From Escherichia coli O157:H7 (GTDB taxonomy: Bacteria; Pseudomonadota; Gammaproteobacteria; Enterobacterales; Enterobacteriaceae), in assembly GCF_013167455.1 (NCBI RefSeq), contig NZ_CP038328.1: a stretch of DNA of 64,000 nt; one strand, written 5' to 3'. The notes under the pieces were generated by a model, which was not told the DNA's origin, made no database searches, and saw only the letters and a list, made by a program, of their open reading frames with translations. Shown piece after piece: positions 1-36,539 of the stretch. Made by a program: the position numbers and the translations under genes. Position 1 is the stretch's first letter. Each line of letters starts with the position of its first letter.

Positions 1-126
1 CATAATCTGGTATTCCGAAGGAATGCGATCGTCTTCCACCAGATCTCCGGTATAAATACTTTCTCTTATCCACTCCACCACTTGTTGATAGAGCGGTATT
101 TGTGACGACTTACTTAATGATTTCAT
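1..126 (-). CDS. GntR-family HTH transcriptional regulator, N-terminal 42 codons only (gene runs off the window start)
   Basis: Reverse complement of 1..126 begins with ATG (124..126) and translates MKSLSKSSQIPLYQQVVEWIRESIYTGDLVEDDRIPSEYQIM, a typical GntR-type winged-helix N-terminus. Absent from the ORF track because no stop lies inside the window. Confidence 0.4.
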   Translation of the reverse strand, partial: MKSLSKSSQIPLYQQVVEWIRESIYTGDLVEDDRIPSEYQIM

Positions 127-324
127 GGCGCGCACCTGAACATTTACAGTTGTCTATGGACAATCATGGACAACTTCAAGCGTATAGTAGGTGAACGGGA
201 GAAAAAGAGGATCGAAGCGTCTCACATTTTGAGGGACCAAATCGTGATCAAAAAAATGTGACGTGAGTCGATATTTGTCAGAAGTTTACTGCGCCGTAAG
301 GAAATAACGGCGCGTTGGTAGGTG

Positions 325-3128
<2,804 letters not shown>

Positions 3129-3132
<4 letters not shown>

Positions 3133-4073
3133 GCGTGCGCTCCTTCATGACGACGAATGCGTGGGTCCAGTGCGGCGTTGAGCAAATCGACAATCAAATT
3201 ACAGACCACAAAAACCACCACCATCATCAGCGTAAAGCACTGGATCACCGGATAGTCACGGTTAAAAATCGCCGACACCGCATAGCGCCCGACGCCGGGC
3301 CAGGTAAAGATGTTTTCGATAATCATCGTCCCGCCAATCAGTTCGCCAATGTGCATCCCCACGGCGGTGATCATCGGCAGCGAGGCATTGCGCAGAATAT
3401 GACGACGCTCGGTCTGTTTGTCATTCAGGCCGCGTAGCCGCGCCCAGGTGACGTGACGCTGACCGGCGACGTCCAGCATACTGGCGCGCAGCAGCCGTGC
3501 GTTAATCGCCAGCGACATAAAGGCAATGGAAACCGCAGGCAAAATGATGTGCTGCCAGCCGCCGTAGCCCATCGCGGGTAGCCATTGCAGATACACCGAA
3601 AACGCCATCACCAGTAAAAATGCCAGCCAGAAGTTGGGCATCGACACGCCGAGAAACGCGATGAAACGTACGGCGAAATCCGGCAGACGGTCACGATGGC
3701 GCGCCGCCCAGATACCGAGCGGTACGGAAGTGAGCAGAATTAATACCAGCGCCGCACCCGCCAGTTCCAGCGTGGCGGGCAGGAAGTTCAGCATATCGTC
3801 CAGCACCGGGCGCTGCGTGGCAAATGAGATGCCGAAATCAAGATGCAGCGCCTTCCACAACCAGGTGCCGTACTGCACATACAGCGGCTGATCCAGTCCC
3901 AGCATGGTGCGGGTAGAGGCCAGCATCTCCGGCGTCGGCGGCAGGTTAGACAGACGCAAATAATCGAGCGCCGGGTCGCCGGTACCGAGGCGCAGCATCA
4001 GAAAAATGATCACCGAGGCGGCGAGCACCATCGGGATCAGCAGCAGAAAGCGGCGTAATACGTAACGCAACAT
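3129..4073 (-). CDS. nikB: Nickel ABC transporter permease NikB
   Basis: 314-aa DppB/OppB-type permease; tightly packed in the operon. Confidence 0.93.
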
Positions 4074-5647
4074 TAAGGTTTCACCGGTTTAATCTGTTCG
4101 AACGGAATTTCGGTGGCGATCGGCGCGTAGGGGATGTTACCCAGCTCCGGTTTTGATACCACCATCATTGAGATGTAACTGATAGGCAGATAAACCGCCT
4201 CGTCATGCAGACGGGTCAGAATGTCGCGATACAGTGCCTGACGTTGTGCTTCGTCATGGGTCGCCAGCACTTCGCCGATCTCTTTATCAATCAGCGGCTT
4301 GTCGGCTAATCCTTGCTGTGCCTGGAAGTCAGCGTGCGACGGTACGCGCATTGAACTCAGGAAGGCGTGTGGATCGTATGGCGCGCCCCAGGTGCGGTGG
4401 AAAATCATGCCAAAACGACCGTCGCGCTGACGCGCATAGATACTGCTCTCTTCTTCGCCAATCAGCGAGACATCTGCGCCAATCTGGCGCATATCAGCCT
4501 GAATGATTTCCGCCATCGATTTGCTTAACGCATCGGTGCCGATGAACGAAAGTTCAATGTGCAGCGGCTGACCATTTTTCTCGCGGATGTCTTTGCCCGC
4601 AGGCAGCGTCCAACCGGCTTTTTCCAGCAACGCTTTCGCTTTCTGCGGATCGTACTGGCGCGGTTTCAGGCCGAGGTTGGCGTAGGGCACAGAAGGGGCA
4701 AACAGGGTGTCGGCGACCTGCTGGGTGCCATACAACGCGTTATCAATCAGCGATTTTTTGTTTACCGCGTAATTAAGAGCTTCACGTACTGCCAGCTCAT
4801 TGGTGGGGGCTTTGGCGGTATTAAGCGCCAGCATCACGGTTTCGATCGGCTGTGACAGTTGGGTATGGTAAGCCGGGTTCTGGCTAAAGCGGGCGAAGGT
4901 ATCGAGCGGTAATAACCCTTCGTTTCCGTACAGCAGGTCGATATCGCCAGTTTCAAACGCCACCGCGCGGGTAGTCGGGTCTGGGATGACGTTAAAAGTG
5001 ATCTTCTTAATTGCCGGCTTTTCGCCCCAGTAGTTTTCGTTACGGACGAAGACATCGTACTGATTCAGTTTCGATTCCTGCAAAACCCACGGTCCGGTGC
5101 CAATCGGCGCTTTAATCCCGTTCATGGTTTCATGGTTTTTAAACTGCGAGGGGGCGATAAAGCGGAAAGGGCGCGGCAGGGCCAGTTCTTGCAGGAAAGG
5201 ATAGTAGGCGCTTTTCAGGGTGATTTGCAGCTCTGTTTTACTGAGTGCTTTAACATCAACAATCTGGTTTGCCAGCTCCAGCCAGGCGTGACGTTGACGG
5301 TTATCGAGCACTGCGCGGAAGTTTTCTGCCGCCGCCTCTGCATCAAACGGTTCGCCGTTAGAGAATTTCACGTCATCACGCAGGGTGAAGGTCCAGATTT
5401 TACCATCTTCTGAATGAGTCCAGCTTTTTGCCAGCCACGGGATCACCGAACCGTCTGCCTGATATTTCACCAATGGTTCATAAACCATGCTCTGGGCGAA
5501 CATCTGGTTAGGCGTGTAAAGGTGCGGGTTTAGTGGCCCGACATTCACCGGCCAGGCGGTGGTGATTTCATCTGGTGCAGCGGCATGGACGATAAAAGAC
5601 GCACAAGCCAGCAGCGCAAATAGAGTGCGGCGGAGTGTGGAGAGCAT
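4073..5647 (-). CDS. nikA: Periplasmic nickel-binding protein NikA
   Basis: 524 aa with N-terminal signal peptide; family-5 solute-binding protein; first gene of the nik operon. Confidence 0.93.
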
Positions 5648-5685
5648 GGTAACCCCAATGGATTAAAATAGATGGCGGAAATAAG

Positions 5686-5713
5686 TATGACGATTTTAAG
5701 TATTCGTCATACT
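5686..5713 (-). promoter_or_regulatory. NikR operator in the nikA promoter (GTATGA-N16-TCATAC)
   Basis: Perfect dyad GTATGA(5686..5691)-16 nt-TCATAC(5708..5713), about 40 bp upstream of the nikA start; matches the established NikR operator architecture. Confidence 0.8.
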
Positions 5714-5757
5714 GATTACCTGTTCTGGATCAATAGATGGGCAGTCGGGTGGGCGGA

Positions 5758-6345
5758 TCAGTTAACTGAATCGATCCATTGCACACTGTCGGCGGTGAGC
5801 GTAAAGGGAGTAGGGGTGCAGATCGCCAGGCTTAAATTTTCTAGCTGACAATGGCTGACTGACAGCGAGGAGTGATAGGTGCTGTCTACGCTGACGATTT
5901 GCCAGGCGCTGCCACCACGCTGTTTAACGATGGCTTCTTTGCGCGTCCAGATGCGCCAGAACATTTCCAGTTGCTGATCAGGATGCACGGCGTCCATCTC
6001 AGCATGTTCCCCGAGGCTGAACACGGCGTTCGCCAGCCAGCGCCAGTTGGCGCGCGGGCGAATCACTTCGATATCGCAGCCGACTTCGCCTTCATCACTC
6101 AACAGCAGGGCGATATCGTCACCGCTATGGCTTAAGTTGAACCATAGCGGCGTTTCCGGCGCAAATGCAGGTTTGCCTTGTTCGCCATAGATGATCTCCG
6201 GTAGCGGGGAAAGCGTGTGCGAAAGCAATGCACGCCCCGCCAGCCAGCGTTCGCGTCGTGGACCTTGCGGTGCTTGCTCGCGTAAACCCGGTGGCAGTGG
6301 AGCTGCGCTTAAGGTCGAAACTTTCCCCAGAACTATCCGATACAT
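5758..6345 (-). CDS. acpT: 4'-phosphopantetheinyl transferase AcpT (195 aa)
   Basis: Translation from the internal ATG at 6345 (MYRIVLGKV...) gives 195 aa matching AcpT. The longer ORF-track start at 6465 would overlap the upstream KS gene and is rejected. Confidence 0.88.
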   Translation of the reverse strand: MYRIVLGKVSTLSAAPLPPGLREQAPQGPRRERWLAGRALLSHTLSPLPEIIYGEQGKPAFAPETPLWFNLSHSGDDIALLLSDEGEVGCDIEVIRPRANWRWLANAVFSLGEHAEMDAVHPDQQLEMFWRIWTRKEAIVKQRGGSAWQIVSVDSTYHSSLSVSHCQLENLSLAICTPTPFTLTADSVQWIDSVN

Positions 6346-6346
6346 A

Positions 6347-7576
6347 TCAGGGCCAACGTTTAATGATGATGGATGTATTAATGCCGCCAAAGGCAAAGTT
6401 GTTACTCTGCAAAAACTCACAATCAACCTTGCGGGCTTCATGCATGATGTAATCCAGCGCGCCACAATTCGGGTCTGGTTTATTCAGGTTTAGCGTAGGC
6501 GCAAACCAACCTTCGCGCATCATTTGCAGACTCATCCAGGCTTCGAGCGCGCCACAGGCACCAAGCGTATGACCAAAATAACTTTTCAGCGAGGAGAGCG
6601 GCACATTATCACCGTAAATGGTTGCTGTCGCCAGACTTTCTGCCATATCACCGCGATCGGTCGCCGTACCATGCGCTGAAATATAGCCGATATCTTGTGC
6701 GCTTAACCCGGCGATTTTCAGCGATTGCTCCATACAATACTGCATGGTTTCGCGCTGCGGCTGGGTAATATGTGCCGCGTCGCAGTTAGTCGCAAAGCCG
6801 ACGATTTCACCGTAAATGGTCGCGCCGCGCGCTTTGGCGTGCTCCAGTTCTTCGAGAATGAGCGTACCTGCGCCTTCACCAATCACCAGCCCGTCGCGGT
6901 TTTCATCGAACGGTGAAGGTGTGGTTTTCGGCGCATCATTGTGCTGGCTGGTGGCGAAAAGCGTATCAAATACCGCTGCTTCTGAAGGACATAACTCTTC
7001 GGCACCACCAGCAACCATCACCGTTTGATAACCGTGGCGAATGGCTTCCCACGCATAACCGATTGCCTGGCTGCCGGAAGTACAGGCGCTGGAGGTTGGG
7101 ATCACCCGCCCGCGCAGGCCGAAAAAGAGGCCAGTATTAACGGCGGTGGTGTGCGGCATCATCTGCACATAGGTGGTGCCAGTGATGTTATTGGTGTGCT
7201 TTTCCGTCAGCATGGTGGCGAACTCGCTTACCGGGCCGGTACTGCCGGTCGATGAACCGTACGCAATGCCCGTTTCGCCGCTGGTTAATATCGGATCGCC
7301 AATCAACCCTGCCTGCTCTAACGCCAGCTCGCTGGCACGGGTCGACATTTGCGACACGCGGCCCATCGCACGGATACGCTTGCGGGTGTAGTGCTCCGGT
7401 AGCGTGAAATCATCAACAGGCGCGCCAAGCAGGGTGTGCAGCCCATCGTAGACCTGCCACTCCGGCATTTTGCGCACCGCATTTTCATATGCCAGTAAGC
7501 GTGCAGAAACGTCCTGCCAGTTTTCACCAAAGGCAGTCACGCCGCCCATTCCTGTAATCACTACGCGACGTGTCAT
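6347..7576 (-). CDS. apeR: Beta-ketoacyl-ACP synthase (FabB/FabF-like elongating KS) of the APE-type cluster
   Basis: 409 aa; active-site SSACTSG Cys plus ISAHGTAT and FGHTLGA His motifs. Ape letter assigned from position in a colinear 17-gene cluster, tentative. Confidence 0.8.
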   Translation of the reverse strand: MTRRVVITGMGGVTAFGENWQDVSARLLAYENAVRKMPEWQVYDGLHTLLGAPVDDFTLPEHYTRKRIRAMGRVSQMSTRASELALEQAGLIGDPILTSGETGIAYGSSTGSTGPVSEFATMLTEKHTNNITGTTYVQMMPHTTAVNTGLFFGLRGRVIPTSSACTSGSQAIGYAWEAIRHGYQTVMVAGGAEELCPSEAAVFDTLFATSQHNDAPKTTPSPFDENRDGLVIGEGAGTLILEELEHAKARGATIYGEIVGFATNCDAAHITQPQRETMQYCMEQSLKIAGLSAQDIGYISAHGTATDRGDMAESLATATIYGDNVPLSSLKSYFGHTLGACGALEAWMSLQMMREGWFAPTLNLNKPDPNCGALDYIMHEARKVDCEFLQSNNFAFGGINTSIIIKRWP

Positions 7577-8304
7577 AACATCCCTCCGTTGATGGAAATA
7601 ACCTGGCGGGTGACGTAACCCGCAATATCAGACATTAAATAGCTGGCAAGCCCGGCAACTTCTTCCGCCTGGCCCATGCGTTTCATGGGGATCATCGACA
7701 TTGCCTCTTTCAGGGCGCTCTCTTCCATTTCGATCATCCCGGTATCAATAAGCCCCGGCGCGATGCAGTTGACGGTGATTTTGCGCTTCGCGAGTTCGAT
7801 AGCCAGCGCTTTTGTTGCGCCGATAATTCCGGCTTTGGCAGCGCTGTAATTCACCTGGCCGCGATTGCCCATTACGCCGGAAACCGAGGATAGCGTGATG
7901 ATGCGCCCACCCTGGCGTGCGCCGATCATCGGCATAATGCACGGCTGAATGACGTTGTAGAAACTGTCGAGGTTGGTGTGGATCACCGCATCCCAGTCGT
8001 CATCGCTTAAAGCCGGAAAAGCGGCATCGCGGGCGATCCCGGCGTTACTGACCACGCCGTACCAGGCACCGTGTTGCGCGATTTCGTGCTCCAGCACTTC
8101 CCGACACTGTTCGCGGTTTGCGACGTCGAAACTGAGCAAACGCCCGTTACCCCCATTGGCGACAATGGCATTCAGCGTTTCCTGAGCGCCTGTGGCGTCA
8201 CGGTGATAGTGAACGCCAATGTTAAAGCCGTCTGCCGCCAGTTGGCAGGCGATGGCGCGACCAATGCCTTTGCTGGCACCAGTAACCAGAACTGAACGAC
8301 TCAT
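7573..8304 (-). CDS. apeQ: 3-oxoacyl-ACP reductase (FabG-like SDR ketoreductase)
   Basis: 243 aa; N-terminal TGASKGIG Rossmann motif and SDR catalytic YSAAK; 4-bp overlap with the downstream KS. Confidence 0.8.
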   Translation of the reverse strand: MSRSVLVTGASKGIGRAIACQLAADGFNIGVHYHRDATGAQETLNAIVANGGNGRLLSFDVANREQCREVLEHEIAQHGAWYGVVSNAGIARDAAFPALSDDDWDAVIHTNLDSFYNVIQPCIMPMIGARQGGRIITLSSVSGVMGNRGQVNYSAAKAGIIGATKALAIELAKRKITVNCIAPGLIDTGMIEMEESALKEAMSMIPMKRMGQAEEVAGLASYLMSDIAGYVTRQVISINGGML

Positions 8305-8768
8305 CAGGACGCTCCTTGTTGAAACAGGGTGGTAAGTTCTTCCGCGGTCGGCTGGAAGGTGTTAATGCGGCCCGTCGCCTCGCCGTCGTTGATGCTGCAC
8401 TCAAAACTGCCGAAGCGATCGTCTTGCATCAGCAGTTTGACGGTAATGGTCAGTGTCTGGCCTGCGGGCAGAATGCCAGTGGTGCAAAGCAATTCACGCG
8501 CGCCCAGTATCATCCCTAACTCAATACTGTTTTTGCCCTGCTGGTGGCGATGCCAGCCAGACCAGACGCCGACGGTTTGCGCCATCAGTTCAAGGGTAAA
8601 CCAGCCGGGGAGATTGCCGTCCGGGTCGAGAAACGGTGCCAGTACGCCACTGGGCGAAACCGTCACGCGGCACACCGCGCTGTCATCGCTGACGCTCACC
8701 ACGTCTTCCAGCAGTAACATGGGCGCGTCGTGGGGCAGATAAGCGCCGGGGGATAAATAGTGGCTCAC
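8304..8768 (-). CDS. apeP: Hotdog-fold 3-hydroxyacyl-ACP dehydratase (FabA/FabZ-like)
   Basis: 154-aa hotdog-sized ORF inside the PKS-like cluster; overlaps neighbours by 1 to 4 bp. Confidence 0.7.
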   Translation of the reverse strand: MSHYLSPGAYLPHDAPMLLLEDVVSVSDDSAVCRVTVSPSGVLAPFLDPDGNLPGWFTLELMAQTVGVWSGWHRHQQGKNSIELGMILGARELLCTTGILPAGQTLTITVKLLMQDDRFGSFECSINDGEATGRINTFQPTAEELTTLFQQGAS

Positions 8769-9943
8769 GAAACCCTCCCGAGCAGAATGCTGGCGTTATT
8801 GCCGCCAAAGGCGAAGGAATTGGACAGGATCACCGGACGTGCCAGCGGCTGCGGTTTTTCGATAATGCCACACGGTGGCAGCGTGGGATCGCGCGGCGAC
8901 AGGCTGAAGTCCTGAGCGGGCAGCGGTAAATCACGCTGTAAAATCAACATACTAATTGCCGCCTCGGTAATGCCCGCTGTGCCCAGCGTGTGTCCGGTCA
9001 AATGTTTGGTGGAGCTGCACGGTACGCGTTCGCCAAACAGGGCGTTAACCACCATTGATTCAATCTGATCGTTGAGTTGTGTGGCGGTGCCGTGCAGGTT
9101 GATATAGCCGACGTCATCTGGCGTAAGCTGCGCATCGGTCAGCGCCTGATTAATAGCGCGGATCGCTCCTTCGCCCTGCGGATGCGGGGCTGAAATATGG
9201 TAAGCGTCGCTCGATTCACCAACGCCCAGCAACGCGATGGGCTGCGGTTCCCGGGTCAGCAGCATTAGCCCCGCCCCTTCACCAATGGTGATACCTGCGC
9301 GGTCACGACCAAACGGCTGACATAAGGTTGGCGACAGCGATTCGAGGCTGTGAAAACCGTTAATCGGCATCCGGCTCAGGGTGTCTGCGCCACCCACAAT
9401 GGCGGCATCGACCAGCCCCGCTTCGATAAGCCTGCGCCCGCTGATTATCGCTCTGGCGCTGGAAGAGCAGGCGGTTGAAAGGGTATAGGCCGGGCCGTCG
9501 AGCGCCAGCCAGTGGCTGAGAAAACGCGACGGATCGCCGAGTTCCTGTTGCGCGTAGTGCCATGTGGTGCTCGGCTGCCCGTGGGTGCGCAGGTTAACGT
9601 GCGTGTCGCCTTCATGCAGGCCGGAGGTGCTGGTACCAAGCACAATCGCAATGCGCTCGCGGCCATATTTCGCAATGGCGTCATCAACCTGCGGCTGGAT
9701 CTGCGCCAGCGCCGCCAGCAGGATCTGATTGTTGCGCGAGCGGTGCGCAGCGAATTTTTCCGGGATAAGCGGAAGCTCGCCATCCACGCCAGCCAGGACC
9801 GCCTGCGGATGCCCCTGCAACCAGCCTGCGCGCGGGCGCATGCCGGGAGCAACACCGCGAGTCAGGTTGGTTGCGATTTCGTCAAGGTTATTTCCCAGGG
9901 CGTTGATCATGCCGACGGCGGAAATATAAATCATATCAGTCAC
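8765..9943 (-). CDS. apeO: Beta-ketoacyl synthase (KS partner of the chain-length-factor-like protein)
   Basis: 392 aa; active-site TACSSS Cys with HGTAT and GHTLG His motifs. Confidence 0.8.
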   Translation of the reverse strand: MTDMIYISAVGMINALGNNLDEIATNLTRGVAPGMRPRAGWLQGHPQAVLAGVDGELPLIPEKFAAHRSRNNQILLAALAQIQPQVDDAIAKYGRERIAIVLGTSTSGLHEGDTHVNLRTHGQPSTTWHYAQQELGDPSRFLSHWLALDGPAYTLSTACSSSARAIISGRRLIEAGLVDAAIVGGADTLSRMPINGFHSLESLSPTLCQPFGRDRAGITIGEGAGLMLLTREPQPIALLGVGESSDAYHISAPHPQGEGAIRAINQALTDAQLTPDDVGYINLHGTATQLNDQIESMVVNALFGERVPCSSTKHLTGHTLGTAGITEAAISMLILQRDLPLPAQDFSLSPRDPTLPPCGIIEKPQPLARPVILSNSFAFGGNNASILLGRVS

Positions 9944-10520
9944 CTAAGTATTGAATGGTGATGTGGTATTTAAAGACATGCTGCTCAATGCTGATTGGCA
10001 CGCGTTTGCCCTTGCGATTCAGATAGGTGATTTCCGTGACCAGTTTGCCGCTGGCGTTACGCAGCTCGCGTTTGTCACCGTTGTCGCGAAGTGTCCATCC
10101 TGCGGGAAGTTGCGGTTGCCAGGCGCTAATCGGCCAGTGGCTGAGCATCACGTCAGCCAGTACCTGACTTGCGGGCGGTAACTGTGGGACGACGATGGAT
10201 TGCTCGGCGCGTAGCCCTTGCGCATCGTAGGTCACCAGAAACAGGCGAATGCCGACCGACGACAGCCCGGCAAGGGTGATTTTCTGATCGTCGGCGTTAA
10301 GCATCACTAACAGCGACTGGGTTTTGCCGTTGAAGCTGCCGGTCAACAGTTGCTGCGAATTGACTGCGGGTGAAATCCCTGGTGCCGGCAGCGTGATGCG
10401 CGTGCCAGGTTGCAGCCACGCCTGCGGGCGGCCTTCCTGTTCTGGTTGCGAGTGGCTACAGCCGGTGAGGATAAGCGTAGCGGTCAGGGCGAACGCTCGC
10501 CAGAATGTGGATTTGATCAT
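9936..10520 (-). CDS. apeN: Lipoprotein of the APE export module (DUF3261-like)
   Basis: 194 aa; signal peptide with lipobox LTGC; sits between the MMPL exporter and a KS. Confidence 0.65.
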   Translation of the reverse strand: MIKSTFWRAFALTATLILTGCSHSQPEQEGRPQAWLQPGTRITLPAPGISPAVNSQQLLTGSFNGKTQSLLVMLNADDQKITLAGLSSVGIRLFLVTYDAQGLRAEQSIVVPQLPPASQVLADVMLSHWPISAWQPQLPAGWTLRDNGDKRELRNASGKLVTEITYLNRKGKRVPISIEQHVFKYHITIQYLGD

Positions 10521-12835
10521 TTTTTTGTTCTCTTTTTATCGGGCATAGCCAGCGGCGAAAGCAGGAAGGCGGTGAAAATACCGCTCACCAGCACAATGCC
10601 AAAACTGCTGATGGCCTGGGTGGCGCTGAATACCAGCATACCCAGCGTCAGCAAGGTGGTGAGCATTGCCAGCGCGATCGCCAGTAGCGAAGTTAACGGT
10701 GTACCGCGCGGATTACTGAAAAACAGCGTGTAGTTGATACCGATGCCAAGCACCAGCACCAGCGCCAGCAGCGAAAAGAGATTCACCGCCTGCCCGCTCA
10801 TCGCCAGCACCGCCAGACCACAGCCCAGCGAAAGCACCGAAGGCACCAGGCTGATAAGCCCTTTGCGCCAGCCGAGACGGGCCACTGCGCCGCAGGCAAT
10901 CACTGCCAGCGCCACCAGCAACAAGCCGGTTAAGACGTAGCGGTAAAGTGCGAACAATTCATCAAAGGTGCTTTTGCGATCAACCCAGGCAATGCCGCAA
11001 GGGTAATATGTGGCGATTTCCTGCATCAACGCGCTACTTTTAACCCCTTCAACCGGCACCAGTACGCCGCTTTCGCCGTTTTCCAGCGTCAGCCACAGCA
11101 GACGCCAGCCTTCACTGGCGGGGCTTGCCAGCCATTCATCAACGTTCACTGGCATGGCGTTGAGATCCGGGTTCACTGCCGTCAGCCCGGCATTTTGCAG
11201 CGCTTTTGTTACTGTCGGGGCCGCCGTTTTCAGCAGTTGTAAATCTTCCTCCTGCCGCGCAAGGGAGTTCAGCGGAATGGTGCGGTAGTTGCTGATAAGC
11301 CCCTCTTTTTTCGCATACTCAAGTGAGGCGGTATATTTCTCCAGTCGCCGCAATGTTTGCTGTGGCGAATCGCCGTAAACCACAAACCATTTTTGATCGA
11401 CGCTCTGCCCGGTCAGGGCGGTAATGGCTTTTTCCTGCGCCAGAATATGCTGCGGTAGCGCCTGTAACTGCGAGATATCGTCATCGACGCGTAGCATTGA
11501 CATCCCCGCCAGCGAAAACAGCGCCAGCGCGACGGGCAGACCCAGCGACAGTTTTTTATTACGCCGCCACGCTGCCAGCCAGCGTAGCATCAGCGCCATC
11601 GCCGGAACCGGACGCACCGGCAGGCCACGGCACAGCCACGGATGCCAGAACAGGACGGTCAGACAGGAGGCGCTCAACCCGACGGCGGCAAAAATCGCCA
11701 TCTGGCGAATGCCGGGGAAGGGGGCGAGCATCATAATCAGATACGCCGCCACGGTGGTGAGCAGCGCCAGTAGCAAGGCATTGCGTACTTTCGCCAGGCT
11801 TTGCCACGGCGAAACGTCGTTGCCGTGAACCATCCGCTCGGTGAGATAATAGAGCGTGTAGTCAGCGGAAATGCCGATAACGCTCATGCTCATCACCAGC
11901 GTCATCAGGTGTAATTCACCGAAAATCAATAAAGTGGCGACCGTTCCCGCCAGCGCGCCGATGCCGATGGAAATCACGCAAAGCAGCAACGGGCGTAAAG
12001 AGCGGAACACCGCCACAATCAGCAATATCACCCCCAGCAGCGTAGCCACGCCCAGGGTGGAGATATCCTGCTTCGCCTGTTGGCTGGCGTAATCGCTGTA
12101 AAACACCGTGCCGCGCGAGAGCAACTGTGCCTGCGGGTAACGCGTTTTCAGATCCTTTTCCAGCGTATTCAGGGTCGTGATCAGCTGGTGGGTTTGCTGC
12201 ATATCAAACGACGATCCCGCCAGTTCGCCGTGCAGCAGATACCAGTAGTTGCCCTGGGGATCCTGCGTCACCAGCCAACCGTCCATCAGCCGCAAACGCT
12301 GGCCGTTTTTCGCCATTGCCAGCTGCGAGCCGCGCATTAACATCAGCGGATCGTTTTGCAGCTCCTTGCCGCTTACGCCGGAGAATGCGGAATAAAGCTG
12401 GGAGAGGATCCACTGTGCCTGCGCTTCGCCGCCGTTTTGCAGGCGGGCGCGGGTGTTGGGGTCAATCAGGCCGTTGCGATGCTGCCAGAAAAACGCTCCC
12501 CACGCCTGCTGGCTGGCGGCATCCATTGGCCCTTTAACGTCGCCGAGCGCAGCGGATTTTTGCAGCAGCGTCAGCCACTCCTGAGCGACCAAAGGATTAG
12601 CCTCTTTACCGGGGCTGACCAGCCACACCAGTTGGCGGTCAAGACGCTGCATAAAGCCGTCATTCAGCGCCGGAGGAATATCGCCCATCGTCTGTTTGGG
12701 TAACATAGCCAGCACGCTACTGTTCAGCCGTGATTGCGGCAGCAGGATCAGCAACGCCACCGCCATGACCAGGCAGACTAGCCCCCATAACAGCGCGGGG
12801 CGTTTACTGGGCGGCAAAACGTTGGCGTTCGTCAT
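10517..12835 (-). CDS. apeM: MMPL/RND-family membrane exporter
   Basis: 772-aa polytopic protein with two hydrophobic bundles separated by a large soluble loop, the typical MMPL layout. Confidence 0.75.
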   Translation of the reverse strand: MTNANVLPPSKRPALLWGLVCLVMAVALLILLPQSRLNSSVLAMLPKQTMGDIPPALNDGFMQRLDRQLVWLVSPGKEANPLVAQEWLTLLQKSAALGDVKGPMDAASQQAWGAFFWQHRNGLIDPNTRARLQNGGEAQAQWILSQLYSAFSGVSGKELQNDPLMLMRGSQLAMAKNGQRLRLMDGWLVTQDPQGNYWYLLHGELAGSSFDMQQTHQLITTLNTLEKDLKTRYPQAQLLSRGTVFYSDYASQQAKQDISTLGVATLLGVILLIVAVFRSLRPLLLCVISIGIGALAGTVATLLIFGELHLMTLVMSMSVIGISADYTLYYLTERMVHGNDVSPWQSLAKVRNALLLALLTTVAAYLIMMLAPFPGIRQMAIFAAVGLSASCLTVLFWHPWLCRGLPVRPVPAMALMLRWLAAWRRNKKLSLGLPVALALFSLAGMSMLRVDDDISQLQALPQHILAQEKAITALTGQSVDQKWFVVYGDSPQQTLRRLEKYTASLEYAKKEGLISNYRTIPLNSLARQEEDLQLLKTAAPTVTKALQNAGLTAVNPDLNAMPVNVDEWLASPASEGWRLLWLTLENGESGVLVPVEGVKSSALMQEIATYYPCGIAWVDRKSTFDELFALYRYVLTGLLLVALAVIACGAVARLGWRKGLISLVPSVLSLGCGLAVLAMSGQAVNLFSLLALVLVLGIGINYTLFFSNPRGTPLTSLLAIALAMLTTLLTLGMLVFSATQAISSFGIVLVSGIFTAFLLSPLAMPDKKRTKK

Positions 12836-13409
12836 CGGTCAGTTGCGCTGGCGTCAGTTGATGTTGGGTAAGAGCAATATCGGTGCGATCGCCCTGTTTA
12901 TCATTAAGTTGAATGCTCTCCAGATAGGTTTTCCCGGCGAGATCGATGGTGTTGAAAATTTTATCCAGCGGCGTGGTGGTCGGCGTCAGGCGCAGCGTCC
13001 AGCGGCCTTCGCCTTTGTCAGCAAATTCGACGCGGAAGTTTTGTTCCAGCACTTTGCGATCGGCCTGGAACAACGCGCGCAGCAGGTGGTTAAACTGGAA
13101 CATCTGCGGGTTGTTTTCTGCCGTGATGATTTGCGGCGGCTGACCGTTGATCACCTGCACCATGCGTTTATCGTCCAGTAATAGTTGCATGGGGAACGGT
13201 GAGGTTTGATCCCACAACAGCCCCTGGTCGCGGGCGATCAACATCTGGCCCTGAGATCGCAGCGGCTGCGGCAGATCTTTAATCGTCCGGGTTTGATCGA
13301 AATGGGCGCGGATCACCGGTTGTTCGGTAAAGCGTTGCTGAAGATCGTCCAGGGTCAGGGCGCTCACAAACGGGCTAATCAGCAGCGCCAGCAGCGGTAA
13401 AAATTTCAT
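12804..13409 (-). CDS. apeL: LolA-like outer-membrane lipoprotein carrier protein
   Basis: 201 aa with signal peptide; size and position match the LolA-like component of APE clusters. Confidence 0.65.
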   Translation of the reverse strand: MKFLPLLALLISPFVSALTLDDLQQRFTEQPVIRAHFDQTRTIKDLPQPLRSQGQMLIARDQGLLWDQTSPFPMQLLLDDKRMVQVINGQPPQIITAENNPQMFQFNHLLRALFQADRKVLEQNFRVEFADKGEGRWTLRLTPTTTPLDKIFNTIDLAGKTYLESIQLNDKQGDRTDIALTQHQLTPAQLTDDERQRFAAQ

Positions 13410-13828
13410 GGTTTGACTCCCATGCGTTCAAACAGAATATCGGGGCTGACAAAGCACAGTTCGCGACTTTGCTCGTCGACCGCGACCTGAATGGTGTATC
13501 CGGTGGTGGCGCGTTTGCCCGTTTCGGCATCGAAAATCTGATAGCCAATCCGCAGACGGTTTTCGAACTCTTCGATATGCGCACGCACGCGGATGCGTTG
13601 CTCAAAGGTGAGGGCGTGGCGATATTTCACCCGCGCATCGACCACTGGCCACAAATAACCGGACTCTTTCATTTGCCGATAGCCGTAATTGAACTGGTTG
13701 AGCAGCGCCTCGCGAGCCACTTCAAAGTAGCGAAAATAGTTACCGTGCCAGGCCACGCCCATCATATCGACGTCGTGAAAGGGAATGGTCAGCTCGACTT
13801 CTGCGGTAAATCGGGGATCGTTCAGCAC
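13406..13828 (-). CDS. apeK: Hotdog-fold acyl-CoA/acyl-ACP thioesterase (4HBT-like)
   Basis: 140-aa small thioesterase-sized ORF, translationally coupled (ATGA overlap) to the next gene. Confidence 0.65.
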   Translation of the reverse strand: MLNDPRFTAEVELTIPFHDVDMMGVAWHGNYFRYFEVAREALLNQFNYGYRQMKESGYLWPVVDARVKYRHALTFEQRIRVRAHIEEFENRLRIGYQIFDAETGKRATTGYTIQVAVDEQSRELCFVSPDILFERMGVKP

Positions 13829-13831
13829 CCT

Positions 13832-15508
13832 TTACTCCTTGTCCTGAATTTCCGGCAGTTGCCAGAAATCGAAAAAATTAAACCAGTCGAGAGGCGACTG
13901 GAGCGCGTAATGTTCCAGACGCGCGGCGTAATGATCGATAGCGTTTTGCAGCGCCTGTTGGCGTTCGCCGCGCGGCAGCTGCAGTGGGTCGGCAAAGCTT
14001 TCGCAGTGAATATGCAGCTTGCCGTGCTGGCGCAGGGCGAAAATCAGATTCACCGGGCAGCGCAAAATAGAGGCGAGAATAAACGGCCCCTGTGGGAAAG
14101 GCGCAGGCTGGCCCATAAACGAACTCCAGCAGACGCGCCAGTCGCCGCCGCGTTGCGGGTTGACGGCGATGCGGTCACCGACAATCGCCACCCATTCGCC
14201 GTTATCCAGCTTCTCTTTCAGCAGGATGGCGGTTTCTGGGCCGATATCTGTTACCGGCATCAGGTTAATGCCTGCCTGAGGAGCCATCTCCTGCATTATC
14301 TGTTTAAAGCGTTGGGCGTTTTCGCTAAACACCAGCGCGTTAATGGTTTTGTAGCCCTGAATTTTTGCCAGCGCCCGGCACACTTCCACATCGCCAAGAT
14401 GCGAGGCCAGCAGCAATTTGCCGCGCGGATCGCGGACGTCAAGCGCTGCTTCTGCGCCTGGCGCAAACAGCACATCACGCCCTGGTTGTAGCTCGCCGCG
14501 CCAGCTGGCGATTTTGTCGAGCATGGCATTACCGAAACGTAGAAAGTGCTGATAGCTGTTGAGTTTTGCCGCCTGTGGTTGATGCTGTCGTACACGGGCG
14601 AGCCAGTCTTGCGACGCTTTGCGCGCACGAGAAGCAGTGAGCCAGTAGACGCCCACCACCGGGTAAAGCAGCGCGCTAAACGCCGTTCTTCCCAGCAGAC
14701 GCCAGACCAGCAGCATCAGGCGCATTCCCCATAATCCTTTCACTTCACTCTGCCGCGCCCAGTGGCAGGAAGAGCGGCGCATCAGCAGTGAAGGAATACG
14801 CGGCAACATGCCGAAAAACAGACGCGTGTGCATGAGCGAGATGCGGACGTTATCTTTCAGGGCATCAAAATGCGAAAGCCCGTCCAGTGGATAGGTGACG
14901 CGGGTCGGCACGAAATAGCTGGTATTTCCCTGCCAGTAGAGGCGCACCATCACTTCGGTGTCGAAATCCATCCGCTTGCCGATGGTGGCGTGTTTTGCCA
15001 GTTGCAGCGTTGGCGCAACCGGATAAACGCGAAAACCGCACATGCTGTCTTTCAGTTGCAGGGAGAGCGTTTCGATCCATACCCAGACGTGGGTGACCCA
15101 GCGCCCGTAAAGCCGTGAGCGGGGGATGGAGTCATCGTAAATTGGCTGGCCGGAGATCAGTGCCGCAGGTTGTTGTTCAGCGAGAGCCAGCAGTTTAGGG
15201 ATATCTTCAATCGCGTGCTGACCGTCAGCATCCACCTGCACCGCATGGCTGAACCCTGCGTCTGCCGCTGCCTGTAAGCCACGCATCACCGCCGCGCCTT
15301 TGCCTGCGTTTTCTGCCAGGCGAATTAAGGTCACGCCAGGCTGTTCGGCAAGCAGACTGTCCAGTTGCTGTTGTGTGGTGGCATCGCTGCCGTCATCCAC
15401 CACAATACAGGGCAGATTAAATGGCTTAAGACGCGCCAGCACGCCCGGCATCATCGCGCCGTGGTTGTAGCAGGGTATCAACACGCAGGGAGAAAAGTTT
15501 ACCGACAT
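13832..15508 (-). CDS. apeJ: Bifunctional family-2 glycosyltransferase / acyltransferase
   Basis: 558 aa; N-terminal GT2 motif VVDDGSD, followed by a membrane segment and a C-terminal acyltransferase-like domain. Confidence 0.7.
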   Translation of the reverse strand: MSVNFSPCVLIPCYNHGAMMPGVLARLKPFNLPCIVVDDGSDATTQQQLDSLLAEQPGVTLIRLAENAGKGAAVMRGLQAAADAGFSHAVQVDADGQHAIEDIPKLLALAEQQPAALISGQPIYDDSIPRSRLYGRWVTHVWVWIETLSLQLKDSMCGFRVYPVAPTLQLAKHATIGKRMDFDTEVMVRLYWQGNTSYFVPTRVTYPLDGLSHFDALKDNVRISLMHTRLFFGMLPRIPSLLMRRSSCHWARQSEVKGLWGMRLMLLVWRLLGRTAFSALLYPVVGVYWLTASRARKASQDWLARVRQHQPQAAKLNSYQHFLRFGNAMLDKIASWRGELQPGRDVLFAPGAEAALDVRDPRGKLLLASHLGDVEVCRALAKIQGYKTINALVFSENAQRFKQIMQEMAPQAGINLMPVTDIGPETAILLKEKLDNGEWVAIVGDRIAVNPQRGGDWRVCWSSFMGQPAPFPQGPFILASILRCPVNLIFALRQHGKLHIHCESFADPLQLPRGERQQALQNAIDHYAARLEHYALQSPLDWFNFFDFWQLPEIQDKE

Positions 15509-15852
15509 AGGCGGATCTTCCCGCTACTGGCGGTGTGGCGGGCGTCACCGTCGTGACGCTGATAGCTAAAGCTCAGAATCTGGCGTTCTTCCTGCCAGTT
15601 AAGCGCGAGCGTGACGCGGTTTTCCGGCAGCAACGGAGACTGGAATTTTATGTTCTGAATGGAGTGAAAACGCCAGCCAGGCGCGAGCAGATTGAGCGCG
15701 TAGCTCATCGCCCAGTCGATTTGCGCAACTCCTGGGAGTAATGGTTGCACGGCAAAATGACCGCGAAACCAGAACAGATCCGCCCTGAGATGCAGAACAA
15801 TTTCAAGGTGATTCGTTTGTGCCTGATGGCGCTCGATTTCATGGGGCTTCAT
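15499..15852 (-). CDS. apeI: Hotdog-fold dehydratase (second DH subunit)
   Basis: Start set at the ATG at 15852, which has an AGGAG ribosome-binding site 9 nt upstream, giving 117 aa. The ORF track extends it to 15882. Confidence 0.65.
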   Translation of the reverse strand: MKPHEIERHQAQTNHLEIVLHLRADLFWFRGHFAVQPLLPGVAQIDWAMSYALNLLAPGWRFHSIQNIKFQSPLLPENRVTLALNWQEERQILSFSYQRHDGDARHTASSGKIRLCR

Positions 15853-17200
15853 GAAATAACTCCTGTAATTGCGCATAGACACGCTTGTTCATACTGTTTA
15901 CTGGCATTTCATCAATAACGCGCCAGTAACGCGGAATAGCAACTGGCTCCAGCGTCGGGCGCAGTAAACGCCGCCAGGTCATTTCCTGGCTATGCCCGCC
16001 GCCGTTCTGCCATTGCAGATGAGCTTCGTCATCCAGCACCAGCAAAACGCCTATGCTCTGACGCCCGCCGCGCGTAACGGGAACTGCCGCCGCCTCGCGA
16101 ATGCCGTCCAGCGCCAGTAGACGTTGTTCTACTTCCTGGAGTGAAATACGTTTTTCTTCAATCTTAACGATGCGCCCACGACGCCCCATCAGATGGAACT
16201 GACCATCTTCGCTAAACTGTAAGATATCGTCGAGTAACATGCCGTTATCTTCCGCTATCAGCGGTGAAAAGAGGCGAAAGGCATCGCCTTCGGCCTGGAA
16301 CTGCATACCTGGGAGGGGTAGCCAGCGGCGTTGCTCTTGTTCGCGGTAGCGCCAGGCGATGACGCCAGTTTCCGTGCTGCCGTAGATTTCATCAGGCCAG
16401 ACGCGCAGCCAGCTCGCGGTATGTTGTACATCCTGCCACGGCAGCTCACCGCCAGCAGAGAGAAGCACCTGAACGGGTGGCGGAGAAAGCTGGGTATCCA
16501 GGCGCTTCAAAAATGCCGGGCTGCTGATGAAGATATAGCGATGCTGATGACTCAACGCGGCAAACTGTTCGACATACCAGAGCATGGCGGCGTGCAGCGG
16601 TAATCCCAACGCCATGGGCAGGAAAACGCGAAAAGTCAGGCCGTACAAATGCTGCGGCAATACGGAACCGACGACACGACAACCCGCCAGACGTGCGCCT
16701 AATCGTTCAGCCAGCAGTTCTGCTTCACGATCCAGCAAATGAACAGGTTTAATCGCCCGTTTCGGCTGTCCCGTGGAACCGGAGGTAAACAGCTCGATAA
16801 AAGCCTCTGGCGCTATAGCGGCAAAGGTGAAGGATTGTGTCGCGATTTGTGGAGAACTTGCTACCAACAGCAATGAACCTTGCCAGTTAAGTTCGCTGTC
16901 GCTAAGCACACCATCAAAAAGTTCACGTTGCTCGTTAAGCTGGATAACACGGTTATGCCCCGGAAGCACCGGCGTTTTTCCGGCGTGTAGCGTGGCGAGC
17001 AGGGCAACGATAAACAGATAGCTGTTCTCAAAGCACAGCGCCCAGCGTTCACCCGGCTGTTGCTGCAAGCGGCAGATAAGTTGCGCGACATCGTGACGCA
17101 AATCGCCCAGCGTCCAGGTACTTTCGTTCAGCCACGCAATGGGTGTGTCATCAGGGCGTGGCGCAGTCAGCCAGCGTGCAAGCGGTAAGGTCTGCTTCAT
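15839..17200 (-). CDS. apeH: AMP-dependent synthetase/ligase (adenylating starter-unit ligase, acyl-ACP synthetase-like)
   Basis: AMP-binding motif TSGSTGQPK; start placed at the ATG at 17200, which forms an ATGA overlap with the upstream gene's stop, giving 453 aa. Confidence 0.8.
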   Translation of the reverse strand: MKQTLPLARWLTAPRPDDTPIAWLNESTWTLGDLRHDVAQLICRLQQQPGERWALCFENSYLFIVALLATLHAGKTPVLPGHNRVIQLNEQRELFDGVLSDSELNWQGSLLLVASSPQIATQSFTFAAIAPEAFIELFTSGSTGQPKRAIKPVHLLDREAELLAERLGARLAGCRVVGSVLPQHLYGLTFRVFLPMALGLPLHAAMLWYVEQFAALSHQHRYIFISSPAFLKRLDTQLSPPPVQVLLSAGGELPWQDVQHTASWLRVWPDEIYGSTETGVIAWRYREQEQRRWLPLPGMQFQAEGDAFRLFSPLIAEDNGMLLDDILQFSEDGQFHLMGRRGRIVKIEEKRISLQEVEQRLLALDGIREAAAVPVTRGGRQSIGVLLVLDDEAHLQWQNGGGHSQEMTWRRLLRPTLEPVAIPRYWRVIDEMPVNSMNKRVYAQLQELFHEAP

Positions 17201-17778
17201 GCGCGATCTCTTTTCATCACCTGACGGCGCAGCAGCCATTCACCAGCCATTAACGTCCCCATCAACAAATAAGCAATCATGCCGTTCCAGGCGGTCCATA
17301 ACGACATATCGGCATAAAGCGCGGTAAAGAGGGCAATTCCACCGTTAATGATGAAAAAGCCGCACCAGATTTGCGTGACGTGGCGGGTATAGCGCACGCC
17401 CTTTTCCGGGAGGTCTGGCTCCTGCAACCGCGCCAGCCGCTCAACTATCGGCATTGCCGACCACAGCGAACCGCCAAAAACCGCCAGCATGACCGCGTTA
17501 ACCACTACCGGGTAAAACAGCAGTAGCTGGTGCGTTTTCAACATAAAGCTGGCGACACATAATGCGATGCCCACGACAGCGACGAGTTGCGTGACGGCTT
17601 GTAAAGGCCCCGCCTGGCGACGGGTCTGGCGCAGACGCAACAAAAGCAGCAACGCCATTAGCGGTAACAGCCAGTGCAGGCCGTTATGCGCTAAGCCAAA
17701 CCAAATCACAAACGGCCAGGCGAGCAGCAATAATCCAGTCAGCAGCTTAATCATCGGTAGCGAGCGAATGCCCGACAT
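17197..17778 (-). CDS. apeG: Integral membrane protein of the APE cluster
   Basis: 193 aa with about 5 predicted transmembrane helices. Confidence 0.6.
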   Translation of the reverse strand: MSGIRSLPMIKLLTGLLLLAWPFVIWFGLAHNGLHWLLPLMALLLLLRLRQTRRQAGPLQAVTQLVAVVGIALCVASFMLKTHQLLLFYPVVVNAVMLAVFGGSLWSAMPIVERLARLQEPDLPEKGVRYTRHVTQIWCGFFIINGGIALFTALYADMSLWTAWNGMIAYLLMGTLMAGEWLLRRQVMKRDRA

Positions 17779-17782
17779 CAGA

Positions 17783-18034
17783 TCAGGCTTCTTGTAGCAG
17801 GCGTTCTACAGCCTCGACGACATCCTGGACTGTACGCACTGCTTTAAACTCTTCCGGCTTGATTTTCTTACCGGTTTTCTTTTGCAGGTGCACAATCATG
17901 TCAACGGCGTCGATGCTGTCCAGTTCCAGATCTTCGTACAGGCGCGTTTCAGGTTTGATGTCCTGCGGATCGATTTCAAACAGCTTAACCAGCAGGGCTG
18001 AGACTTCCTGATAGACGGTTTGTTGTTCTGTCAT
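17783..18034 (-). CDS. apeF: Acyl carrier protein
   Basis: 83 aa; phosphopantetheine attachment motif LELDSIDAVDM; GAGGAA ribosome-binding site upstream. Confidence 0.85.
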   Translation of the reverse strand: MTEQQTVYQEVSALLVKLFEIDPQDIKPETRLYEDLELDSIDAVDMIVHLQKKTGKKIKPEEFKAVRTVQDVVEAVERLLQEA

Positions 18035-18045
18035 GATGGCTTTCC

Positions 18046-18303
18046 TCAGGCACGTTGCGCAGCAATGAAAGAGGCCAGAGTGGCGACGGAGAAAAAGTGC
18101 TGACGCATCTCTTCGCTTTCCGCAGAGAGCACGATGCCGTACTCATTTTTTACTGCCAGTCCCAGTTCCAGGGCATCGATAGAGTCCAGCCCTAAACCGT
18201 CGCCAAACAGCGGCGCGTCGGTATCGATATCATCAGGCGTCAACTCGTCCAGATTGAGGGTGCTGATGATGAGGTTTTTAATTTCCAGATAAAGCGCTTG
18301 CAT
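18046..18303 (-). CDS. apeE: Acyl carrier protein
   Basis: 85 aa; motif LGLDSIDALEL; AGGA ribosome-binding site upstream. Confidence 0.85.
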   Translation of the reverse strand: MQALYLEIKNLIISTLNLDELTPDDIDTDAPLFGDGLGLDSIDALELGLAVKNEYGIVLSAESEEMRQHFFSVATLASFIAAQRA

Positions 18304-19099
18304 TATTTATTCCTGAGAGAGGTAAACAACCTTGTTGTAATTGAAGCAAAAGATGCCGGTTTAACTGCCTTGCTGCCAGCGCCGGTTCTTGTGAAGTTGC
18401 ATCGTAAAATTTATTGATTTCAACCCGACCATGGACTGCAACCGTAAAAAACGGCCGGTCAGGTGGAACGTCATACCATTTACTTTGTTTATCCAGCAGA
18501 TGCTCGCTACAGCCGATTGTCACGATGCGTAAATCGCTGGCGCAGCGCACGGCAATATTCGCCGCCCCGCGCTGCAGCGTCATTTTTTCACCGGGCTTCG
18601 TTCGTGTGCCTTCGGGGAAAATCAGGATAGTGTCACCCTGTGCCAGTCGCTGTTGGCAGCGGGGTAACAGAGTTTCAGCTTCGCTGTTGATTAAATAATC
18701 TGTCGCCCGCACGACGCCGCCAAGAAAAGGATTTTTTAACAGCGCGCTTTTCACCAGGCAGTCAGTTTCTGGCATGACTGACGCCAGCAGCACGTAATCG
18801 ATCAGCGTGGGATGATTGGCTACGACGAGGCAACCGCGTTCCTGATGTAAGATTTCAGCGCCATCAATACGATAATCCAGTACGCCAAGCCCTTTCGCGA
18901 CAGTTAAAAACAGGCGAAAACTGGCGGCAATGCTGCGACGCGCCAAACGACGGCGGCGGGAAGTATCCCACACCAAAACTAACAATATGTTAAACCACAC
19001 GACAGAAAGCAGCAGGCCGCCGAGACCAAACAGGGCAAAACATAACCCGGTCATGACCAGTCGCCAGGTCCACTCCAGACGTGACATCAGCTTACTCAT
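18278..19099 (-). CDS. apeD: Lysophospholipid (PlsC-type) acyltransferase
   Basis: N-terminal membrane anchor and acyltransferase-sized body; start placed at the ATG at 19099 (ATGA coupling with the upstream stop), giving 273 aa. Confidence 0.7.
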   Translation of the reverse strand: MSKLMSRLEWTWRLVMTGLCFALFGLGGLLLSVVWFNILLVLVWDTSRRRRLARRSIAASFRLFLTVAKGLGVLDYRIDGAEILHQERGCLVVANHPTLIDYVLLASVMPETDCLVKSALLKNPFLGGVVRATDYLINSEAETLLPRCQQRLAQGDTILIFPEGTRTKPGEKMTLQRGAANIAVRCASDLRIVTIGCSEHLLDKQSKWYDVPPDRPFFTVAVHGRVEINKFYDATSQEPALAARQLNRHLLLQLQQGCLPLSGINNASALSGN

Positions 19100-19818
19100 C
19101 TGTGGCTCCAGCGCCATTGCACGCGCTCGCCAGGCAGTGAAAATGTGTCTACATTTTGTAAATAGTGCTGTAAAAACAACATGCTTTGCGGCAGTGTTGT
19201 TTCATTGCCCGCAATGGCTGACTGCGTTTCACATTGCCAGTCATCGCCAGCTTCAATCACCAGCGCGACGGCGTACGGCCAGGTCGGCATTTCTGATGGC
19301 AGTTGTGGGTGATAAAACTCGGGCAGGAAACCGTCAAAATCGACCATCAGCACGCGCTGGTATCCCGCTTGTAGCAGGCTAAGCACTTCACACAAACCTT
19401 GCTGGAAACTATCGCGACCAGCCGAAAGCGATGACGAAACGCTCGGCTGTTTGGCCGCAATGGTCAGGTTACCCACGGAAGAGTTGTGTACGGAGAGCGC
19501 GAAGTCCGTCGGAGAAAGCGCCTGTTCGGTTGCCAGTGCATGAACAATGCGGTAATTGCGCTCCAGTTCGCCATGACGACTGGTATACAAAACGGCGTCT
19601 GGTTGATGGCGGCGTAGCATTGCCAGACCGCATTCAACAGCCAGTTTGCTCCCGGAGCTGAGGCGGCGGGCGGTCATCATTGGCAGTTCACTTAATTTTG
19701 CCAACGGTGCTGTCGGGTCAATTGCCTGAGGCTGACGTGACCACTCCTGCCATTGCAGCGTTTCACTAAGTCCAGGCGCTCTTGCCTGCCAGTCGAGAAT
19801 GTTTAATGCAAATTTCAT
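19096..19818 (-). CDS. apeC: KS-like protein lacking the active-site Cys (chain-length-factor-like KS partner)
   Basis: Ketosynthase-like by cluster context, but no Cys/His/His triad is visible. Start ambiguous: ATG at 19818 (240 aa) or TTG at 19842 (248 aa). Confidence 0.6.
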   Translation of the reverse strand: MKFALNILDWQARAPGLSETLQWQEWSRQPQAIDPTAPLAKLSELPMMTARRLSSGSKLAVECGLAMLRRHQPDAVLYTSRHGELERNYRIVHALATEQALSPTDFALSVHNSSVGNLTIAAKQPSVSSSLSAGRDSFQQGLCEVLSLLQAGYQRVLMVDFDGFLPEFYHPQLPSEMPTWPYAVALVIEAGDDWQCETQSAIAGNETTLPQSMLFLQHYLQNVDTFSLPGERVQWRWSHR

Positions 19819-19858
19819 CAACGCGCGCCCGCGGTAAACCAAAATTATTAAGTGACGA

Positions 19859-20926: not shown

Positions 20927-20985
20927 AACCTGTTAAGAGGGAATTAAATTATTATCGGACCGCAACGGCCCGACTTTAGGAAGAA

Positions 20986-36533: not shown

Positions 36534-36539
36534 TAATTT

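Follow-up and report, generated by a model that had tools for sequence, protein, structure and literature searches.

At the left edge of the window, by which we mean the whole 64,000-nucleotide stretch of the Escherichia coli O157:H7 chromosome analysed here, a gene begins on the minus strand just downstream of nikR and is cut off after 42 codons. The locus raises the question of what this gene encodes, how it comes to stand at a place occupied by other genes in K-12, and what it may control. An annotated gene cut by the edge of a window is in itself ordinary. The gene, its family assignment, the island that carries it and a partial crystal structure are already in public databases, and the difference from K-12 has featured in genome comparisons of O157:H7 since 2001. 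What can now be offered is a specific promoter and operator model for a regulator-headed operon, one that encodes a carbohydrate pathway induced in bovine gut contents.

The truncated gene and its relatives

The reading frame runs on the minus strand from an ATG at 126..124, is open to base 1 and has the product MKSLSKSSQIPLYQQVVEWIRESIYTGDLVEDDRIPSEYQIM. Its ATG is separated by a spacer of 198 bp (127-324) from the stop codon of nikR, upstream of which lie nikE, nikD, nikC and nikB (Table 1). The first-pass annotation, which had placed a GntR-type gene start on this strand about 200 bp downstream of nikR, is borne out in this respect. Three codons before the ATG there is an in-frame GTG, which was rejected as an alternative start, as it sits within the Shine-Dalgarno sequence AGGTG and is not preceded by a separate ribosome-binding site; the position of the ATG is kept across genera in an alignment of the upstream regions. 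Taken by itself, the 42-aa fragment scores 19 bits (E = 1.1e-3) against the Pfam GntR profile PF00392, which has a gathering score of 27 bits, and a GntR assignment made from the fragment alone is only suggestive.

Table 1. Features at the left end of the window and in the gene cluster beyond it. Positions are those of the window unless a locus is named; L001 is the O157:H7 locus.
Feature	Position	Strand	Remarks
Regulator gene, codons 1-42 of 248	1..126	-	Remainder past the left edge of the window; Z4874 / ECs4349 / WP_001301676.1
Shine-Dalgarno AGGTG	133..137	-	6 nt before ATG; inside leader ATGTTCAGGTGCGCRCC-ATG
Candidate operator AGTTGTCCATGATTGTCCATAGACAACT (coding strand)	148..175	-	Near-invariant in about 15 genera; flanks diverge
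-10-like hexamer TACTAT	184..189	-	TAYNAT across genera (alignment columns 102-107); preceded by C
Proximal CRP-like site TGTGAGACGCTTCGAT	211..226	-	TGTGA half alone invariant; block AAA-N-TGTGA
Distal CRP-like site ATCGACTCACGTCACA	257..272	-	Upstream half degraded in Escherichia and C. amalonaticus
GC-rich hairpin GCGCCGU-N9-ACGGCGC	291..313	-	11 nt after the nikR stop; lacks a U tract
nikR	325..726	-	Upstream neighbour of the regulator gene; 133-aa ORF; stop TAA 327..325
Full regulator gene	L001 14380-15126	-	
PTS IIA			24-nt gap after the regulator gene
PTS IIB			Overlaps IIA
PTS IIC, galactitol family			77-nt gap before
FGGY kinase			Overlaps IIC
HPr paralogue	L001 10409-12176		Overlaps 3' end of kinase gene by 11 nt
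Class II ketose-bisphosphate aldolase			Last gene of the cluster
hicA/hicB	L001 8836-9467		Type II toxin-antitoxin pair
nikR-yhhJ interval	L001 8764-15324		
nikR-yhhJ interval	L002 6991-13679		
nikR-yhhJ interval	L049 8176-8998		

The rest of the gene can be read from other chromosomes. Many O157:H7 chromosomes match positions 1-330 of the window with 100% identity and about 1000 others match with 95-99% identity, and in all matches listed for this stretch the RefSeq annotation gives a 'GntR family transcriptional regulator' next to nikR. Compared with strain Sakai, the window has 2 differences in 14044 bases; against PV15-279 there are 6 in 15330. Extension to the left in identical O157:H7 genomes gives an intact, stop-free protein of 248 aa (WP_001301676.1; ECs4349 in Sakai; Z4874 in EDL933), which is the same in Sakai and PV15-279. 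This protein contains a GntR winged helix-turn-helix (PF00392; 58.3 bits against a cut-off of 27) at residues 12-75, covering profile positions 1-64 of 64, and a UTRA domain (PF07702; 95.6 bits against 23.8) at residues 98-236, covering positions 2-140 of 141. Neither an early stop nor a missing GntR domain came to light, and the truncated reading frame is confirmed as that of a GntR-family regulator.

Because the GntR winged helix-turn-helix is joined to a UTRA domain, the protein is placed in the HutC subfamily rather than with FadR, MocR or YtrA, and the Pfam domain tests make it a bona fide member by sequence. A chorismate-lyase-like fold of the effector domain and release from DNA in response to an effector are further hallmarks of the HutC/FarR subfamily. 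UTRA is the sole C-terminal Pfam domain; the FCD, aminotransferase-like or short C-termini of the FadR, MocR and YtrA types were not matched. NCBIfam models for FadR, MocR and PdhR match mostly the N-terminal ~80 residues (FadR to ~140), with scores far under their cut-offs. The best-scoring curated models are all of HutC type, and again the scores fall far below the cut-offs: 124 against 275 for NF041547 (LSA1692 subfamily), 116.7 against 156.8 for PhnF, 102.3 against 220 for HutC and 102.6 against 211.95 for TreR. The cut-off of the PhnR equivalog is likewise not reached, and by these scores the regulator is the equivalog of no named regulator. The first-pass annotation was right that the gene is truncated by the window; its view that no further classification was possible gave way to a HutC (UTRA) assignment once the sequence was extended leftwards. 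Window 1-126 is almost certainly the 5' end of Z4874/ECs4349, encoding a GntR/HutC regulator.

The closest solved structure, PDB 3HFI ('Putative regulator'), is a 170-residue chain that aligns to residues 79-248 with E = 5e-106 and 7 substitutions in 170, and by sequence is a ~96%-identical allelic variant of the C-terminal effector-binding domain of the regulator. It lacks the DNA-binding domain, the part that the window fragment encodes. As a literature search on 3HFI found neither an associated paper nor ligand information, the structure adds no functional assignment.

After 3HFI, the best matches among solved structures are the HutC repressors NagR/YvoA and DasR. NagR/YvoA of Bacillus subtilis (PDB 2WV0, 4U0V and 4WWC), a repressor of GlcNAc utilisation, shares the two-domain architecture over its full length (E = 5e-23, residues 3-238), but the match is a distant one of 85 bits over 236 residues, with an identity of roughly 25-30% by eye. 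DasR of Streptomyces coelicolor (PDB 4ZS8 and 9I0V) also belongs to the HutC subfamily and is more distant still (E = 2e-14). In PMC4918961 it is described as a repressor that a sugar phosphate releases. DasR regulates globally, whereas the E. coli protein apparently has a single local target.

The names in the window invite confusion, as 'GntR' occurs in it twice. The gluconate repressor GntR of E. coli, encoded at window 55936-56931 on the plus strand upstream of gntK and gntU, is a LacI/GalR-type protein and not one of the GntR family, which takes its name from a B. subtilis protein. The two have the name alone in common and their genes are unrelated.

A variable site between nikR and yhhJ

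In K-12 MG1655 the gene order is nikR-rhsB-yhhH-yrhC'-yhhI-yhhJ, with rhsB directly after nikR as the first-pass annotation had it, and its surmise that the neighbour of nikR differs in this strain is correct. In O157:H7 the order is nikR-GntR-IIA-IIB-IIC-FGGY kinase-HPr-aldolase-hicB-hicA-yhhJ. The rhsB element of K-12 occupies the same site, between the nikR stop codon and yhhJ, and its content (Rhs toxin, YhhH and an ISAs1-type transposase) is unrelated to the regulator, PTS and catabolic operon with hicAB found here. When K-12 and the window are aligned, homology runs out at the nikR stop codon itself (TAA in the window, TGA in K-12); therefore the whole 198-bp spacer lies in the variable segment. 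The hairpin that follows nikR in the spacer likewise arrives with the island and not with nikR, and therefore nikR of K-12 has a different 3' flank. This hairpin has a 7-bp stem and a 9-nt loop (-13.1 kcal/mol, z = -3.8 by RNA folding), is conserved in Escherichia spp. and absent in C. amalonaticus, and may mark where the nik transcript ends or act on it as a weak terminator.

Searches specific to each junction, run over 5426 complete E. coli genomes, distinguish four states of the site. nikR is followed by rhsB in 2118 genomes, by the GntR gene of the sugar operon in 1637, and by hicB, with hicAB only and no sugar operon, in 1491. A near-empty site, in which about 8 bp or less (at most ~800 bp) separate nikR from yhhJ, is found in a further 167. 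Together the four states account for 5413 of the 5426. The nikR-yhhJ junction is a clean polymorphism, and it breaks precisely at the stop codon of nikR. Outside E. coli, nikR is likewise followed by the GntR gene in E. whittamii, in two cryptic Escherichia clades and in Citrobacter amalonaticus, where the complete loci are without hicAB, and in E. albertii a contig ends 42 codons into a GntR gene beside nikR. Because the GntR-PTS genes stand beside nikR in other Escherichia and in C. amalonaticus as well, rhsB is more likely derived than the reference state; by this comparison the sugar operon was probably at the site before E. coli arose, and rhsB would have replaced it.

Several minor observations concern the same site. 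The hicA/hicB pair lies between the aldolase gene and yhhJ in O157:H7, is not at this site in E. whittamii or C. amalonaticus and is the sole occupant in about 27% of E. coli genomes; strain RS571 carries an internal stop in hicA. In the O157:H7 strain TR01 (NZ_CP033605.1) matching to positions 1-330 of the window breaks off at base 286, which suggests an insertion or rearrangement between the promoter region of the regulator and nikR. NZ_CP045209.1 has a 1.4-kb nikR-yhhJ interval with HicB and a 'hexulose-6-phosphate synthase' fragment, and could represent a fifth, rare state or a remnant.

The seven genes of the sugar operon are co-directional and all intact, and are separated by gaps of 24 to 77 nt or overlap. 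From this tight arrangement the regulator gene is predicted to be the promoter-proximal gene of a seven-gene operon. A hairpin with a 9-bp stem follows the aldolase gene and faces the convergent hicB-hicA pair, beyond which lies yhhJ; promoter and terminator consensus scans of the operon gave match counts equal to shuffle expectation. NCBIfam and PDB searches group the aldolase with the GatY/AgaY/FBA ketose-bisphosphate aldolases and find only remote kinship of the FGGY kinase to xylulo-, glycerol- and fuculokinases. The HPr paralogue retains His15 and Ser46, and a dedicated HPr beside an FGGY kinase recalls the HPr-dependent control of glycerol kinase in Firmicutes. In other genera the HPr gene follows the aldolase gene.

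The gene set is conserved in about 15 genera of Enterobacterales. The seven-gene module, with minor changes of order, is found at unrelated chromosomal sites in Winslowiella, Pantoea, Izhakiella, Mangrovibacter, Klebsiella oxytoca and Cedecea, and also in Phytobacter, Rahnella, Trabulsiella and Enterobacter, with regulator identities of 83-89%. A literature search on ECs4349-4355 and on combinations of FGGY, PTS, aldolase and GntR returned nothing relevant. The 'vpe' PTS operon of uropathogenic strains was considered and rejected as a counterpart: in NCTC 86 it lies on ROD 40 with deoK (PMC5382810), a location not given as the nikR site, and the evidence is indirect.

Published expression data cover several genes of the operon. 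In EDL933, Z4874 (mapped to WP_001301676.1) is up by log2 3.4 and 2.1 in bovine digestive contents compared with M9-glucose, and Z4875, Z4876, Z4877 and Z4879 are up by log2 2.1 to 3.8 in the same comparison (PMC6199705). This co-induction is compatible with one autoregulated operon on which glucose repression has been lifted. In stationary phase, Z4874 shows 60-fold RpoS dependence and is listed as 'Unknown' (PMC2907692). A search of the literature for binding, transcription-start or mutant data on the Z4874 regulator found none.

The idea that the gene is a decaying remnant or pseudogene of the island, functionless in O157:H7, would suit both that 'Unknown' label and the dispensability of the locus, which 70% of E. 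coli genomes are without. It is nonetheless highly improbable and is already largely refuted, since all seven genes of the operon are intact, the regulator is an unbroken 248-aa frame identical in Sakai and PV15-279, its identity is 97-98% in other Escherichia species and 83-93% in other genera, and Z4874 is transcribed and regulated (PMC6199705, PMC2907692).

Promoter and candidate operator

An alignment of the 167 bp upstream of the start codon from 16 loci, across about 15 genera, reveals five conserved blocks in the 16 upstream regions, with diverged flanks. The leader running up to and including the ATG (window 124-147) is almost invariant across about 15 genera. Its conservation exceeds what the Shine-Dalgarno sequence alone would explain, and no obvious structure was found in it.

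The candidate operator is a 28-bp element that reads AGTTGT(A/C)CATGATTGTC(C/T)ATAGACAACT across genera. It contains three half-sites of the TTGTCCAT type, two of them direct and 10 bp apart and the third inverted, so that a palindrome TTGTC-N4-GACAA results (150-163). In the 64-kb window, as in the 30-kb locus, there is a single exact copy of the palindrome. A second operator-like site with two mismatches, at 42009-42022, was rejected as being at chance level (4 observed against 1.7 expected; 13 of 100 shuffles as good). The operator consensus of the HutC subfamily is reportedly GT-N-TA-N-AC. The candidate operator has the GT...AC arms of this consensus but not its spacing, having GTC...GAC arms around a longer centre. 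In this it can be likened to the system of NagR, where sugar-PTS-linked catabolic genes are again combined with a palindromic operator with GTC...GAC arms, although the NagR dre site is of 16 bp whereas the candidate in E. coli consists of TTGTC-N4-GACAA and a third half-site.

Upstream of this element lies the -10-like hexamer, and transcription would be predicted to start near window 177, about 7 nt after it. A C immediately 5' of the -10 hexamer favours sigma-S. The proximal CRP-like site is centred 41.5 bp upstream of the predicted start; -41.5 is the class II position for CRP, whose consensus is TGTGA-N6-TCACA. The distal site, centred near -87.5, is at no canonical class I position. Both sites in E. 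coli have three mismatches to the consensus in one half, and in most other genera the distal site is a perfect or near-perfect TGTGA-N6-TCACA. A strict sigma-70 consensus scan of window 1-800 found no promoter, and no sigma-70 call is made in the spacer because there is no good -35. The missing -35 fits an activator-dependent promoter, without being evidence for one. Over the same 800 positions, a terminator scan gave only a chance-level match inside nikR, and an Rfam search (E <= 1) gave no match.

The best overall explanation of these features, with a probability of roughly 0.75, is that a HutC regulator heads the PTS operon and acts as an autoregulated repressor released by a sugar phosphate. 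By analogy with NagR and DasR, a local repressor of this kind combined with activation by CRP is a reasonably probable mechanism. A dimer of the regulator, or two dimers, would bind the triple half-site of the candidate operator. Since this element begins about 2 nt downstream of the likely start, binding would repress the operon that includes the gene of the regulator itself. A phosphorylated sugar intermediate from the PTS, kinase and aldolase pathway would then bind the UTRA domain and release the repressor, and cAMP-CRP at the conserved TGTGA sites would activate transcription when glucose is absent.

The published co-induction of Z4874 with Z4875-77 and Z4879 would look the same under positive autoregulation, and activation fits the data as well as autoregulated repression does. 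As a promoter with no recognisable -35 also needs some activator, the regulator could act on the PTS operon as an activator, or in a dual role, and not as its repressor. The arrangement of the promoter makes this improbable: the conserved candidate operator follows the -10 hexamer and covers about +3 to +30 relative to the predicted start, which is the position of a repressor, the positions of an activator are already taken by the CRP-like sites, and the closest characterised relatives, NagR/YvoA and DasR, are repressors.

Repression through the candidate operator can also be judged from a related but split cluster found in Raoultella, Superficieibacter and some Enterobacter (L023-L031, about 3900-12100, e.g. 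L024). There, a PTS-FGGY-Zn-dehydrogenase unit is separate from a GntR-aldolase-HPr-Zn-dehydrogenase unit, with two Zn-dependent dehydrogenases in all. A motif of the E. coli type, (T/G)TTGA(A/G)CAT(G/A)GTTGTACATAGACAA, stands upstream of the IIA gene in these clusters, again behind TGTGA-N6-CACAA, and the promoter of the regulator itself carries a related motif, TTGTTCATACTTGTATACAGA. This occurrence before a separate PTS unit is the strongest support, at the level of sequence, for the operator model.

It also bears on the possibility that the 28-bp element is bound by some other factor, or is an RNA leader element, and that the targets of the GntR protein lie elsewhere, for example in nik or among distant genes. 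Such a reading would account for the unusual invariance of the leader between the candidate operator and the ATG, and the departure of the element from the classical HutC operator consensus speaks for it too. Against this, the element accompanies the regulator gene into different chromosomal contexts in about 15 genera and recurs upstream of the PTS unit where that unit is separated from the regulator. For an RNA element there is no match to an Rfam family, and as a target nik is disfavoured in that nikR and the nik genes are not beside the cluster in most genera. We consider this second alternative unlikely, and a repressor acting at the candidate operator remains the preferred reading.

Candidate effector and pathway

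The Raoultella-type clusters also offer a hint as to the signal. Compared with E. coli, their regulators are 66-70% and their aldolases 79-90% identical, whereas the PTS components are only 28-57% and the kinases 35-38% identical. The clusters suggest that in them an orthologous regulator controls a variant of the pathway for polyols. With the regulator and aldolase held in common and the PTS and kinase diverged, the likely signal, to speculate, is a common downstream ketose phosphate or bisphosphate. The same comparison suggests, again speculatively, that the substrate imported by the E. coli system is a ketose and not a polyol.

The effector pocket can be compared with that of NagR by way of a HMMER alignment, with the contacts taken from PMC4333415. 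The phosphate ligands Arg133 and Arg135 of NagR align with Arg135 and Arg137 of the E. coli regulator, Ser88-Phe89 corresponds to Ser90-Phe91, and the stacking Tyr167 is replaced by Phe170. Thr90 and the sugar-contacting Glu145 are not conserved, being Ala92 and Ile147 here. The comparison suggests a phosphorylated ligand with a sugar moiety unlike that of NagR, although the alignment is distant (~25-30% identity) and the reading of the pocket is soft.

Together these observations allow the tentative proposal, which we would put forward as a possibility rather than an expectation, that the regulator senses a ketose phosphate or bisphosphate of a gut carbohydrate pathway. This pathway, which only about 30% of E. 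coli possess and which is induced in bovine intestinal contents, would comprise the galactitol-family PTS, the GatY/AgaY-like aldolase and the FGGY kinase, translationally coupled to its own HPr paralogue. If the proposal is true, knowing the effector would put a name to a new route of catabolism and to what may be a determinant of niche.

Elsewhere in the window, acpT and yhhT are separated by a large fatty-acid or aryl-polyene-like biosynthetic cluster (about 6350-21360) with ketosynthases, FabG2, an ApeP dehydratase, an MMPL transporter, a LolA-like protein, acyl carrier proteins, a glycosyltransferase and a methyltransferase. It is absent in K-12, where acpT directly follows yhhT. Z4850-Z4861 are listed as O-island 138 (PMC2907692). 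A DprA-like gene and a frameshifted pseudogene of a RecQ-family helicase lie at 59081-62407, between gntU and yhgN, and an acetyltransferase-type toxin-antitoxin pair, ataR-ataT, lies at 36267-37067 between livJ and panM.
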